DNA of 64,000 nucleotides from Eledone cirrhosa (Eukaryota), in the NCBI GenBank assembly GCA_964016885.1, contig OZ024742.1, positions 290,160,001 through 290,224,000 on the forward strand, written 5' to 3'. The translations under genes were made by a program, and so were the position numbers. The notes below the pieces were generated by a model. The model worked only from the letters and a program-made list of their open reading frames with translations, was not told where the DNA came from and searched no databases. Positions 14,551 through 42,045 of the stretch are shown piece by piece. Numbering within the stretch: the stretch's first letter is position 1; every line of letters begins with the position of its first letter.

Positions 14551-15632
14551 ATATATATATATGTATATATATATGTATATATATATATATGTATATATAT
14601 GTATATATATATATATATATATGTATCTATATATGTATATATATATATGTATATATATATATGTATCTATATATATATATGTATATATATATATATATGT
14701 ATATATATATGTATATATATATGTATATATATATGTATATATATATATGTATATATATATATATGTATATATATATGTATATATATATGTATATATATAT
14801 ATATATGTATATATATATATATATACATATGTATATATATATACATATATATATATATACATATATATATATATATATACATATATATATATATACATAT
14901 ATATATATATATATATACATATATATATATATACATATATATATATATACATATATATATACATATATATATATTACATATATATATATATATACATATA
15001 CATATATATATACATATATATATACATATATATATACATATATAATATATACATATATATATACATATATATATACATATATATATACATATATATATAT
15101 ATATACATATATATATATATATACATATATATATATACCATATATATATAATACATATATATAGATACATATATATATATATATATAATACATATATATA
15201 CATATATATATATATACATATATATATACATATATATATATATACATATATATATATATATATATACATATATATATATACATATATATATATATATATA
15301 CATATATATATATACATATATATATATATATATATACATATATATATATGCATATATATATATATACATATATATATATATATACATATATATATATACA
15401 TACTTATATATATATATACATATATATATATACATATATATATATATACATATATATATATATACATATATATATATATATACATATATATATATAATAT
15501 ATATATATATATATATATATATATATATATATATATATATATATATATACACATATATATATATATACATATATATATATATATATATATACGATATTAA
15601 ATAAATGGAAACTATATTTATAAAACCATATT

Positions 15633-15697
15633 TATTTCATTATATATATTCAGGGATATCATATTAACAATATGTTATGCCTTCTTCAGACAAAATA
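15633..15697 (-). ncRNA. Hammerhead motif, family G (minus copy; CUGAAGA, GAAA lacks one A)
   Basis: Reverse complement of 19125-19190 with two changes. Confidence 0.6.
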
Positions 15698-16461
15698 CAA
15701 TATAGACAGTTTTATAGATAAATAGATTTGACATACCGTTCAACATCGACTTGTATTTGAAAAAGTTGATTTGGCAGTGAAAAATTGTAAACAGAAAGAA
15801 AGAAAGAAAGAAAGAAAGAAGGAAAGAAAGAAAGAAAACGAAGAAAAAGAAGAAAAAGAAGAAATGCATGCAACAAAATAGAGAGATGGAAAGATAGATA
15901 AAGAGAATAACTTCATGTAAAGAAACAGAGAGAGATATATATAGAGAGAGGAAATAGATAGAGATAGATATATATAGAGAAAAGTAGGTAGTTGAACATC
16001 CGTTGAATGAACGTATCACTGATACATTTATTTATTTATTTATTTATTTAGCTCTAGTATTAATGTAAGGAGATATATGTGGTTAGGAAAGAAACCAGCC
16101 GTTATATAGGGAGAAAAATGAAAAGTAACCAGACATAGGCGAGGCAGAATTTAAAAAACCTATGTTTTAATGTAGAAATATTAGTTCGTATAAAACCAGG
16201 CACTATAATGTAAATATCAGTATTCCTGAATGAGACACGTATCCATAATGTGTGAAAGTAATGATCTTATGTCTAGTTTTAAAAATTCATATGTTTATAT
16301 GATAACTACAAACATCGATGTGAATTTACGTGATCAACTCTGCAAACCCCTATTTCACACGGAGAACATTCTCATTGTGCTATAAAAATTTAAGTATACA
16401 TATATGTGTATATATACACATATATATAGAGTCTATATTAATTTTAACAATACTATTCTTG

Positions 16462-17771
16462 ATTTAATGACAACTATGGACCAGAGCAGATAGAGATAGC
16501 AATTTTGACATTACTATGGGATCATCCGACTCAGCTCAGGTAACTGACCTTGTGGGCTTATTTTTAATCAATTCGCTACATAGGAAAATACCTGGTACTA
16601 CCGGAGGTTTATATAGAGATGACATGCTTTTACTTATTGATAGTAATAACTCTGAACTAAATAGAAAAAGAAAACAAATTACACAATTTTTTTATTACTT
16701 TAATCTAAAATAGAAATTGAGAACAACCATAGAATAGTCAATTTCCTAGATATAACATTAAATCTCAACACATGTCTTCACTATCCTTTTCACAAGTTGA
16801 ATGAAAACTTAAACTATGTCAGCTTTAACTCTAACCACCCCAGATCTGTCAAAAACACTATAGTAAACTCAGTTCAAAAACGTATCTCTAGAATCTCGTA
16901 TAATAGAAAGATTTTCGACGAAAAAGCCCAGTACTACAATGAAGCGTTAGCTAGAGCAAGATATAGTGATAAGATTATGTACATAGATAATGATAGACAA
17001 ACTAAACAAAATAACAACTATTTTAATTACGGCCACAACCTTAACAACTATAATAGAAAGCATTACAATAATTCCAAAAGCCAAAAAAGAAATAGAACTA
17101 GGAACATAATATGGTTTGCCCCCCCTTTCTCACTAAACATTAAAACCCACATCGCTAAACTATTTTTTAAAGCTCTTGATAATCGCTTCCCTAGAACACA
17201 TAGGTATCACTCAATTTTCAATAGACATACTATAAAATTAACCTACTCATCCACCAAAAATTTAGCACAAAATATTAATAGAATAAATAATAGGAACTTA
17301 AAACCTAGCGATAATAGCATAAATAATATACAAGTTAACAAATGTAACTGTAGAGATAGATCTAAATGTCCGTTAAATAACAACTGCTTAGTTAAAAATA
17401 TAATATACAACTGTAATGTTAAAACGGACTCTAATTCTTTTAACTACGTCGGTTCCACATCGACGGAATTTAAACTTCGCTATAATAACCACAAGAATTC
17501 TTTCACAGATCCAAGCAAAAAATCTTCAACAGCACTATCAGGCGTACTCTGGCAACTTAGGCAAGATAACGTTAGATATTCGACGGCTTGGAATATAGTC
17601 TCAAGAGGGATTCCTTTTAATTCATCCTCTGAGACATGTGACCACTGCGCGGAGGAGATATTCTTTATACTAAAATCTAAAAATTCCCTTAATCTACGGA
17701 CAAATTTATTCAGTTGCTGCAGACATAGATTGAACTCAACTTTTAAATATAAATTTAAATTTAAAATGTAG
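16462..17771 (+). pseudogene. PLE reverse transcriptase (C-terminal half) plus GIY-YIG endonuclease; truncated, frameshift at ~16710
   Basis: FDITMGSSDSAQVTDLVGLF, GGLYRDD, VNFLDITL, SNHP, WFAPPF, KCNCRDRSKCPL, IIYNC..NYVGST, RYNNH, CDHC..CRH. Confidence 0.9.
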
Positions 17772-19124
17772 TATATTTAGTTTGATTTATAATTATTTGG
17801 GAAACTAGCCGATAAATCTTTCGATTTCTTCTTTTTATTCTTCTTTTTATTTTTATTTTTATTTTTATTTAAACATTCTTCATGAAAAATTAAACTACCC
17901 TAAAAGTTGATGCTCCAAATATATCGAATAAACGTTACACTAGATAAACTTCTATATTAAATATAAGAACATATGTAGACCAAATGGGCATCCTAAACTT
18001 TTTGAAATGATTTCTGCTAGACGCGATTTGGTAAATAATTTCTAGCTTTGTCTGTTTTCGACTCTGATGCTTATAATGAACTTGGCAATATATTGTCAAT
18101 TAATTTTGAAGGGTTGATCTTTGTGGTCGATTTGCGTGGCATATTATGTTTCTATTATGTTTTTATTTTTATTATTTTAATAGTTTTTAATATTTTTAAT
18201 ATTTTTATTTTTAATATGTAATATTTTTTAGTTTTCTATTTTATTTATTTGTTTATTATTATTATTATTATTATTTTTGTTTTTGTTTCTGATATTTTTT
18301 TATTAATATATTGAAATCTTTTCTCTATTTCTGCTTGATAGATAATCATGTAGAGTAAAGACAAGAATAGTATTGTTAAAATTAATATAGACTCTATATA
18401 TATGTGTATATATACACATATATGTATACTTAAATTTTTATAGCACAATGAGAATGTTCTCCGTGTGAAATAGGGGTTTGCAGAGTTGATCACGTAAATT
18501 CACATCGATGTTTGTAGTTATCATATAAACATATGAATTTTTAAAACTAGACATAAGATCATTACTTTTCACACATTATGGATACGTGTCTCATTCAGGA
18601 ATACTGATATTTACATTATAGTGCCTGGTTTTTATACGAACTAATATTTCTACATTAAAACATAGGGTTTTTAAATTCTGCCTCGCCTATGTCTGGTTAC
18701 TTTTCATTTTTCTCCCTATATAACGGCTGGTTTCTTTCCTAACCACATATATCTCCCTTACATTAATACTAGAGCTAAATAAATAAATAAATAAATAAAT
18801 GTATCAGTGATACGTTCATTCAACGGATGTTCAACTACCTACTTTTCTCTATATATATCTATCTCTATCTATTTCCTCTCTCTATATATATCTCTCTCTG
18901 TTTCTTTACATGAAGTTATTCTCTTTATCTATCTTTCCATCTCTCTATTTTGTTGCATGCATTTCTTCTTTTTCTTCTTTTTCTTCGTTTTCTTTCTTTC
19001 TTTCCTTCTTTCTTTCTTTCTTTCTTTCTGTTTACAATTTTTCACTGCCAAATCAACTTTTTCAAATACAAGTCGATGTTGAACGGTATGTCAAATCTAT
19101 TTATCTATAAAACTGTCTATATTG

Positions 19125-40290: not shown

Positions 40291-40441
40291 AATTATATAT
40301 TCGTGTACAGATATTTTTGCATACACAATAACAAAATATAAACAAACGTATTTATTTTACGAGGCTCGATAAGGATAAATATATATCAAATATATAAGAA
40401 CTCTAGAGCAAATCCCGAGCAACACCGGGCCATTCTGCTAG
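40291..40441 (+). mobile_element. Helitron-like 3' end
   Basis: CCCGAGCAACACCGGG hairpin followed by CCATTCTGCTAG|T. 40291-40346 repeats 40033-40088. Confidence 0.55.
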
Positions 40442-40649
40442 TTGTATATAAACTGCATTAGGAGAAAATTAGTGACAGAAATATATGAATGTTTATTTTA
40501 GCGATCGCTAAACGGAAATGTTGACATTTGAAAATTTTAAAGAAGTGAATCTTTAAATGAACAATAAATTATATTTAATACACAGCTACGAAATTTAGTA
40601 GATAAATTATGTAATATTCATTCATTATTTATTCAGCATAGTTACGTCC

Positions 40650-40780
40650 CTTTACGATCTGAGTTCAAATCTCGCCGAGGTTAACTTTGCCTTTCATCCT
40701 TACGGGGTCGATAAAATAAAGTACCAGTAATGCACTGGGTAATTGCTGGCCTTGTGCCTAAAGTAGTAACAATTATTTAT
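40650..40780 (+). mobile_element. tRNA-derived SINE fragment (B-box plus Meta-like central domain)
   Basis: GAGTTCAAATCTCGCC B-box, then CTTTGCCTTTCATCCTTACGGGGTCGATAAAATAAAGTACCAG and GCTGGCCTTGTGCC. Confidence 0.7.
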
Positions 40781-41408
40781 TCAAATAAATCCAACTTATT
40801 TTACTAATGGGATAAAAAAAAAAGTATAAACCGTACGGAGTCCCGCACTCCTTACTTTATTATAGTTTAGATTTACAATTTGTGTGCAGGGTATTACTTG
40901 GCTGTGAGGGAGGCGGTGGTCCAATAAGTTAGAGGGTTGTCACGTTCTGAGACTAGAGAGATAATATGACTATATCTAGCTCATTAGTTCTATTTTGGCA
41001 TAGTTTCTTCAGCTCCGGGGGCGGTGGAAGCATTTCTAAATTGAAGGGGTGGGGGAATTCGATCAATTTAGTTGTAGTGATTAGTTTAGCTGTTACTAGA
41101 CTATTCATGAACCGTTGGGTCACGTTCACTTAAACATATTTTTTTTAAAAATCATATTCATTTAAAAATAATTAAAATATATAGAGATATATATGATGCT
41201 AAATGAAATTGAAGGCCCATATATATATATATATATATATATATATATATATATATGTATATATATGTATATATATATATATATATATATATATATATAT
41301 ATATATATATATATATATATATATATATATATATATATATATGTATATATATATATATATATATATATATATATATATATATATATATATATATATATGT
41401 ATATATAT

Positions 41409-42045
41409 GCAAAGTTTTATTTAAATTGTTGGGTTACAACGAGTAAATATTTATAACTGATATAAAAGCACTCAACAAGTATTTGGAGTATATTTACGAT
41501 ATTAAATAAATGGAAACTATATTTATAAAACCATATTTATTTCATTATATATATTTCAGTGATATCATATTAAAAATATGGTATGCCTTCATCAGACAAA
41601 ATACAATATAAACAGTCTTATAAATAGATAGATTTGACATACCTTACAACTTCAACTTCCATTTAAAAAGTTGATTTGGTAGTGAAAAATGTTAGGGACA
41701 GTTATAAAAAAAGAAAGAAAGAAAGAAAGAAAGCGAAGAAAAAGAAGAAATGTATCTCTCTATATCTATCTCTCTCTGTTTTTCGTTGCATGCATTTCTT
41801 CTTTTTCTTCGCATTCTTTCTTTCTTTCTTTTTTTATAACTGTCCCTAACATTTTTCACTACCAAATCAGCTTTTTAAATGGAAGTTGAAGTTGTAAGGT
41901 ATGTCAAATCTATCTATTTATAAGACTGTTTATATTGTATTTTGTCTGATGAAGGCATACCATATTTTTAATATGATATCCCTGAAATATATATAATGAA
42001 ATAAATATGGTTTTATAAATATAGTTTCCATTTATTTAATATCGT
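41409..42045. mobile_element. Short fold-back of the PLE family G pLTR (no ORF)
   Basis: 41409-41740 is homologous to the reverse complement of ~18960-19320. ~41785-42045 is the inverted arm. HHRs (CUGAUGA) at 41538-41603 (-) and 41938-42003 (+). Confidence 0.88.

Follow-up and report, generated by a model that had tools for sequence, protein, structure and literature searches.

Two fold-back insertions share both outer end points

The 64,000-nucleotide stretch of contig OZ024742.1 analyzed here (positions 290,160,001 to 290,224,000 of the forward strand, referred to hereafter as the window) contains two insertions of one element family, family G, each of them a fold-back of two head-to-head copies in a (TA)n tract. 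On sequence grounds we assign both to the Hydra clade of Penelope-like elements (PLEs), and we find that the outer ends of such elements lie just upstream of a bulged hairpin, present twice between the predicted hammerhead ribozyme and the start codon. Insertion A combines an inverted, 5′-truncated arm (15592–16461, minus strand), whose outer end we term the short end (2-nt TA microhomology at 15590–15591), with a main 5′-truncated copy (16462–19320, plus strand; last base 19319 or 19320), whose outer end is the long end. Insertion B (41409–42044) lies in the opposite orientation to A, carries no open reading frame (ORF) and consists of a long-ended arm (41409–41753, minus strand) and a short-ended arm (41754–42044, plus strand), the latter reaching ~45 nt further 5′. 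The arms pair over 870 nt in A (864 identities, 2 mismatches, 8 gap positions) and over ~255 nt in B (246 identities, 3 mismatches, 8 gap positions).

Alignment of all four arms reveals that both short arms finish ..TTTAATATCG followed by TA (that is, AATATCG directly before TA), and that both long arms extend 87–89 nt past this position to ..AACTTT(C/G)CA, again followed by TA. The intervening tail (19232–19320, plus strand, in A; 41409–41497 in B) shows 85 identities over 89 nt between the two insertions; their turn-round points are not the same. From the ribozyme cut to the long end there are 24 TA dinucleotides, of which A and B use the identical two, so the sharing of ends exceeds chance. 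An earlier sequence-only reading had proposed that both insertions end at the same two outer points, that two defined sites lie downstream of the ribozyme, and that the inner inversion point is variable; all three proposals are borne out by the alignment.

Identical outer ends would also be expected had a fold-back moved or duplicated at the DNA level as a unit, B being an internally deleted descendant of an A-like copy, a counter-case raised by the same reading. The 270 columns common to the four arms (217 identical, 26 gapped, 4 singletons) include 23 that group the arms by insertion and 0 that group them by arm type, so B is no deleted duplicate of A, barring strong arm-to-arm conversion. 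With the same geometry recurring in unrelated families and at L018, which derives from another source, DNA-level duplication is barely credible. The longer product is the short-ended arm in B and the long-ended arm in A, and fold-back of one cDNA that began at the long site cannot account for both insertions.

As a genome-wide test of end position, the family G element was compared with 4 of 18 sequencing runs. Loose ends of pure (TA)n begin where the short arms stop in run X3 (39 contigs), in X16 (5320 raw reads) and in X5, a run from another organism (3 contigs); among the rows listed for X1 none falls there, and 907 loose-end rows of the whole comparison lie outside the listing. A variant subfamily ends within ~2 nt of the short-end position (1420 reads). 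Since T also occurs at 19234 in a subfamily that carries the tail, the A>T change at this position was not counted as an end; nor were summed read depths taken as copy numbers. The 3′ 270 nt of the element (19062–19330) are 10–50x deeper in reads than the ORF, and in many related subfamilies the shared sequence begins only at the hammerhead GAAA, with loose ends before 19170.

Assignment to the Hydra clade

Section 11 of Craig et al (2021; PMC8557442) gives as Hydra signs the RWK and DKT motifs, a CxCX5C linker, CxxC and CxH motifs, and the absence of CCHH. The spacer of A holds a 355-codon open frame (16704–17771, plus strand) that spans the end of the reverse transcriptase (RT)/thumb region, the linker (CNCRDRSKC), a GIY-YIG-type endonuclease (EN), CxxC (CDHC) and CxH (CRH); the RT part upstream of 16704 is broken by stops and frameshifts. 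A second Hydra family is represented by a tandem copy (30867–34843, minus strand) with a 650-codon frame at 32163–34118, for which 174 relatives were found, and the two frames share 39% identity across 350 aa. Each can be aligned to 29 full-length relatives through RT motifs and then YxC..YIG, R, H, E and N, consistent with a single ORF encoding an RT followed by a C-terminal GIY-YIG EN (labels that rest on motifs). Of the N-terminal signs, RWR and DKT are present in the second family and RWK and DKT in the relatives, this part being missing from the family G copies; judged by eye from the alignment, the YxC..YIG core has no two-cysteine insert and hence no CCHH.

The insertions themselves have the form seen in the Hydra clade and in complex insertions of EN+ PLEs: both A and B lie in (TA)n, an inverted 5′-truncated copy adjoins the main copy, a tail is present on one end only, and a canonical minimal hammerhead near the 3′ end is predicted by descriptor matches. 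The tail, at 87–89 nt in family G, departs from the 30–40 bp reported for PLEs, a length that describes other clades and is no defining trait. A Naiad PLE, which would have an N-terminal EN and lack a canonical hammerhead, was rejected as an identity since the EN here is C-terminal and a hammerhead is present. Asymmetric ends, variable inner ends and the grouping of arms by insertion likewise speak against a Foldback DNA transposon or miniature inverted-repeat transposable element, whose terminal inverted repeats would move as a unit. Searching the PLE frames against Pfam gave no match, and a viral contig search gave no relative. The best-scoring relative of A is labeled Argonauta, by a margin of 241 to 240 bits; the host is likely an invertebrate.

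The hammerhead of A is a predicted minimal type I ribozyme (19125–19190, plus strand; core 19133) with a palindromic stem III and a predicted cut after 19182, of the same layout as the Hydra hammerheads in File S2 of PMC8557442. The descriptor search also predicts cores at 41946 and 41595, in the short-ended and long-ended arms of B, respectively; Rfam, run on the whole window at the gathering score, returned no match. Measured from the predicted cut, the short end lies at +49 to +51 and the long end at ~+137. We also considered that the short end might itself be the ribozyme cut (AUC at 19230) and rejected this, as the minimal hammerhead with its 8-bp stem I places the cut at 19182.

A covarying hairpin is present twice between the hammerhead and the start codon

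What the sequence-only reading missed is what marks the two sites: tandem hairpins, with a TA-like patch just upstream of each. The hairpin motif comprises RCUC, an upper stem, a variable loop, a 2-nt 3′ bulge, GAGY and then RCU, and Hydra PLEs carry it twice between the hammerhead and the ATG. In family G, hairpin 1 (19239–19261, plus strand; ACUC, a CAA–UUG stem, a UU bulge and GAGU; 41467–41489 in the long-ended arm of B) starts 5 nt past the last base common to the short arms. In the second family both hairpins stand in an internal 5′ untranslated region (UTR), hairpin 1 at 34462–34488 and hairpin 2 at 34386–34410 (both minus strand); one copy, with its end at 1961, breaks off 5 nt short of hairpin 1, and the long end at 30867 maps 3 nt upstream of hairpin 2.

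Among relatives (77 loci from the best 80 of 176 confirmed stretches), 46 post-hammerhead segments contain 44 hairpins, against 0.3 in shuffled sequence (maximum 3 in 200 shuffles); at least one is present in 30/46 segments and two in 14/46. Twenty-three references, drawn from 21 sources, have paired hairpins at a spacing of 55–78 nt, in most cases followed closely by an ATG, and the first hairpin lies 41–53 nt past the predicted cut in 25/26 cases (56 nt in family G). Loci sharing at least 85% identity form just five small clusters. Rfam, with E up to 1, gave no match on 5 of the 77 loci.

Of 76 hairpin copies, 5 ambiguous ones were set aside, leaving 71 distinct copies; when the lower stem is the sole requirement, 65 of these have a UU, UA or UC bulge. 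A MAFFT alignment of 63 hairpins was discarded because the variable loops misaligned the 5′ half; pairs were instead counted from the anchors, pairing of the upper stem not being required. Upper pairs 1–3 are Watson–Crick in 60/70 (CG 37, TA 22), 49/69 and 38/59 copies, compared with shuffle means of 32.7, 19.0 and 15.2, and 0 of 10000 shuffles reached the observed counts; other bulge registers give 3–13 of ~70 at pair 1. Within the window, a relaxed hairpin pattern finds 6 matches in 17 kb of non-PLE DNA (loops of at most 30 nt) and 8 in 6 kb (loops of at most 90 nt), a background low enough to make the window hairpin matches unlikely by chance. Hairpin 1 also takes structured loops of ~50–70 nt (2740–2823 and 10201–10263), which stretch the tail to ~130 and 160 nt.

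Element ends lie just upstream of the hairpins

The position of ends was surveyed from 1301 alignments, of which we dropped 1130 as microsatellite, 93 below 85%, 16 shorter than 50 nt, 28 that ran through the motif and 7 at contig ends; the rest collapsed to 19 rows. All 11 metagenome ends (L004 and L006 among them representing one family) sit 2–12 nt before a hairpin (4, 12, 4, 4, 3, 2, 11, 4, 9, 2 and 3 nt), 8 of the 11 at 2–4 nt; six of these ends belong to the second hairpin, three to the first, and two could be assigned to neither. Among the 8 window rows, four are clean, at 3, 5, 5 and 8 nt before a hairpin; that at 1961 is 5 nt from hairpin 1, though scored against hairpin 2 in the filtered survey; that at 10320 marks where an inverted arm stops on its inner side and is not an end; and two ran through a mismatch, their exact distances being 5 and 10 nt. 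Further window families add ends at 4 nt (the 2.7-kb fold-back) and, in the 42.7-kb fold-back, at 3 nt for the long end and, by eye, ~4 nt for the short end; six window families in all place ends upstream of a hairpin. Where both hairpins are visible, tail length approximates hairpin spacing (~80 versus 78 nt, and ~160 versus 167 nt).

A TAT or ATA stands within −10 to −3 of the hairpin in 51/66 cases, compared with 27 at −20 to −13 and 9 at −28 to −21; same-letter shuffles average 31.7 at −10 to −3, and 0 of 2000 reached 51. Window ends have 2–6 nt in common with the TA tract. Six published Hydra consensus sequences stop, by eye, at fitting positions: Hydra-1_Amil ends 4 nt short of the first hairpin in the related locus L060, Hydra-1_Ajap and Hydra-1_Obim ~40 nt past the cut, and Hydra-2_Amil, Hydra-2_Ajap and Hydra-1_Crog after the first hairpin, while Hydra-1_Ajap and Hydra-1_Crog also start right at a hairpin.

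Two side observations belong here. At 43510 the inner 5′ start of a main copy coincides with the short-end position, and at L010:3168 it lies ~12 nt ahead of hairpin 2, as if some cDNAs also stopped near a hairpin after one full unit. At L012:2936–2953, two different Hydra families stand tail-to-tail in one short (TA)n, both long-ended.

Long and short ends are paired across fold-backs

All 8 of the 8 fold-backs with readable outer ends, identified by self-comparison of the window, combine one long and one short end, for which the chance is at most 0.5^8 = 0.004 if ends are independent; likewise in L018, from another source, the inverted arm is short and the main arm carries a tail. The fold-back at 2690–5620 (minus strand; long and short ends) has a long-loop hairpin 1 (2740–2823) 4 nt past its short end. 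In that at 38420–38838 (plus strand; short and long ends), hairpin 1 (38756–38783) starts 10 nt past the end of the exact match, or ~0 nt if one mismatch is allowed. The fold-back at 10107–10991 (minus strand), short and non-coding, has its long end 8 nt before hairpin 2 (10672–10691) and its short end 5 nt before a long-loop hairpin 1 (10201–10263 and 10796–10858), with a tail of ~160 nt and a hairpin spacing of 167. At 42748–44185 (plus strand), a fold-back of a 554-nt non-coding unit, hairpin 2 (43640–43667) lies 3 nt past the long end and hairpin 1 (44077–44103), with a compensatory GUUC/GAAC change in its stem, ~4 nt past the short end (by eye, past one SNP). The units of the last two, 550–600 nt long, non-coding and carrying a hammerhead-like motif and both hairpins, are probably non-autonomous, retrozyme-like Hydra derivatives.

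The fold-backs at 12890–13343 and 19829–20916 also pair a long with a short end; they and the copy at 56657–56824, an older relative of the 19.8-kb copy, have tails of ~45 and 57 nt and no RCUC/GAGY hairpin. Perhaps these belong to another PLE clade with a different signal. Left out of the count were the palindrome at 45535–46140 (not in TA, no hammerhead or hairpin match), 56657–56824 (old, long end unclear), 32191–35950 (outer end in an N gap) and 1–1961 (window edge). The inverted ORF copy 34855–35950 runs into the 200-N assembly gap at 35951–36150, which conceals its outer end; the model set out below predicts a short end there. At the inner junctions we observe near-perfect palindromes (20409 and 38583) and short, template-switch-like duplications (13100–13170 and 34843–34870).

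The sequence-only reading had further held that both target junctions are programmed. This stands for the fold-backs and fails for single-arm copies, which have one programmed end (37279–37887; L004).

The hairpins may position two reverse transcription starts

We favor, with moderate confidence, a model in which the hairpins position RT start sites during target-primed insertion and the two target strands prime at two sites. The element RNA would carry the two tandem bulged hairpins between hammerhead and start codon, each docking one RT–EN; cDNA synthesis would begin 3–8 nt 5′ of a hairpin, where the UAU/AUA patch could pair with the 3′ end of nicked (TA)n. One target strand would prime before hairpin 1, yielding the short arm, and the other before hairpin 2, yielding the long arm with a tail equal to the hairpin spacing, in keeping with one priming site per target strand, as the sequence-only reading had suggested. 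Most simply, both primings would occur on the same RNA, the second RT displacing the first cDNA, as PLEs are not known to carry RNase H. The two cDNAs would stop at variable points and be joined at their 3′ ends, giving a head-to-head inverted repeat with fixed outer ends; in a symmetric target either strand could take either site. Family G would be expected to have a hairpin 2 of its own. The fullest version, programmed double priming on one RNA, with two docked RT protomers acting on opposite strands, a telomerase-like UA patch and a template copied twice, we hold more tentatively, and as somewhat less than an even chance. Prediction of a homodimer from residues 1–480 of a relative, with no alignment used, gave a score of 0.00 and speaks neither for nor against two protomers.

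Resolution by the EN offers a different origin for the same ends: the GIY-YIG domain would trim a longer cDNA or DNA intermediate at a fixed distance from single-stranded DNA hairpins, the ends being cut sites. PMC8557442 proposes that the tail arises by EN-mediated resolution, and the Drosophila Penelope EN, as cited in PMC11167929, required the tail for cleavage. The strand signal in the hairpins divides. Mismatched pairs of the upper stem favor the sense strand (8 G–U to 2 A–C), while the outer lower pair has A–C in 3 cases, equivalent to G–T on the antisense strand. The TA patch before each hairpin suits primer annealing, although the EN could also cut there, and RT starts in vitro coincide with tail ends (PMC11167929). 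On balance we regard EN resolution as unlikely, and RNA as the probable folded strand.

The strict pairing of ends bears on whether one RNA or two would be read. Were the hairpins to set the starts with each arm copied from its own RNA, pairing would arise from asymmetry of the complex or by chance; that either arm may be the longer product (A versus B), and that main copies may end short (L004, L011, L026), would fit. The 8/8 count argues the other way, as does the agreement of the arms of one insertion at the 23 diagnostic sites, in a family where positions vary by the hundreds, although RNAs of one source locus, or later conversion, could still give 23 shared sites. We judge two RNAs a rather poor prospect.

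In a self-priming origin, one nucleic acid would fold back (an antisense-template model) to make the inverted arm, and processing would set the second end. Self-priming has been proposed from palindromes at inverted junctions (PMC3846280), and the near-perfect palindromic centers at 20409 and 38583 are of this kind. Two same-sense cDNAs annealing at a palindrome should give perfect centers as well; moreover, the unpaired spacer is on the short-ended arm in B and the long-ended arm in A, and self-priming leaves unexplained why both ends sit before hairpins. This origin is improbable.

Several observations weigh against hairpin-positioned priming itself. For Hydra elements it rests on sequence, and the pairing count comes from one 64-kb window, where two long-plus-short fold-backs (12890–13343 and 19829–20916) have no RCUC/GAGY hairpin past the short end. 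The window contains no hairpin 2 for family G, and the read evidence on this family concerns its short end. Three metagenome ends lie 9–12 nt from their hairpin. The hairpin sequences are related, with kinship partly controlled, so that the shuffle counts should not be read as probabilities. Of ten window hairpins, three (38756, 10691 and 37824) fold weakly or not as drawn, a fourth having been clipped before folding; the 216-nt 3′ end is no more stable than shuffles (z 0.87); and the outer lower pair, with 3 A–C versus 1 G–U, runs against the sense strand. In the in vitro system of PMC11167929, starts occur without target homology and no strand difference is seen in bulk; if either strand can take either site, coupling would be hidden in a bulk assay.

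Relation to known systems

The pattern flagged by the sequence-only reading is real, yet known in kind, and its novelty was overstated: it is the PLE signature in a new Hydra-clade member. The textbook PLE insertion is an inverted 5′-truncated copy with a 30–40 bp tail on one end (PMC8557442, PMC3846280, PMC8969392), that is, a tail on one of two inverted pseudo-long terminal repeats (pLTRs; PMC3846280, PMC8557442). The one-ended extension in Arkhipova et al (2013; PMC3846280) and in the Fig 2 legend of Craig et al (2021) likewise adjoins an inverted 5′-truncated copy; the published tail is 30–40 bp and “optional,” whereas tails here are 87–89 nt (family G) or 45–160 nt (other families) and equal the hairpin spacing where it is visible. 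In the text of PMC8557442 examined, twin hairpins, a fixed end distance and 55–167 nt tails go unmentioned for the Hydra clade, and a search for the term “hairpin” gave 0 occurrences in its main text and 0 in its supplement. Literature searches on PLEs did not find twin hairpins before element ends. That twin hairpins predict both ends, and that the pairing is strict, appear to be new.

A close parallel is Poseidon PAc in vitro (Frangieh et al, 2024; PMC11167929), in which two internal RT starts bound the tail, the reaction depends on RNA 3′ of those starts, cleavage and extension take place on both strands, and a dimer is predicted. PAc belongs to a different clade, with starts inside the ORF in an AC-rich stem-loop, whereas in the Hydra elements the starts would be in the 5′ UTR, each ahead of one copy of a repeated hairpin, with 2–6 nt of TA homology. 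The authors of PMC8557442 and PMC11167929 note that the origin of the PLE tail and inverted repeats needs a mechanism; double priming, if true, would explain the tail, the inverted pLTR and (TA)n targeting together, with the hairpin as a portable RNA signal setting an internal RT start.

Two further comparisons are instructive. L1 twin priming resembles the Hydra fold-backs in that both target strands prime cDNA and the product is inverted; the two L1 cDNAs derive from different stretches of the RNA, the second being primed at an opportunistic site, while Hydra cDNAs overlap and both starts are fixed. In telomerase RNA template positioning and the 3′ stem-loops of L2/CR1, the RT is likewise placed by an RNA structure, and a repeat primer anneals to a short template patch; the Hydra hairpin differs in lying 3′ of its start, in not being copied from that start, and in being present twice. 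PLE RTs are sister to telomerase, and this kinship means that an RNA structure with an alignment patch bears on the origin of telomerase-like templating. A short covarying hairpin that, twice per element, predicts both end points across ~16 families is directly testable, and offers annotators a boundary rule for Hydra elements and a way to spot non-coding derivatives.

Other elements in the window

A palindromic, internally repeated element (45535–46610) is not in TA and has no hammerhead match. Two 99%-identical, 5′-truncated LINE RT copies (21048–22911 and 27133–28995; Pfam RVT_1) lie on the minus strand with (TA)n flanks. A degenerate LTR element at 58110–63944, labeled Ty3/Gypsy-type by eye from ORF motifs, has LTRs of ~480 nt that are 92% alike.

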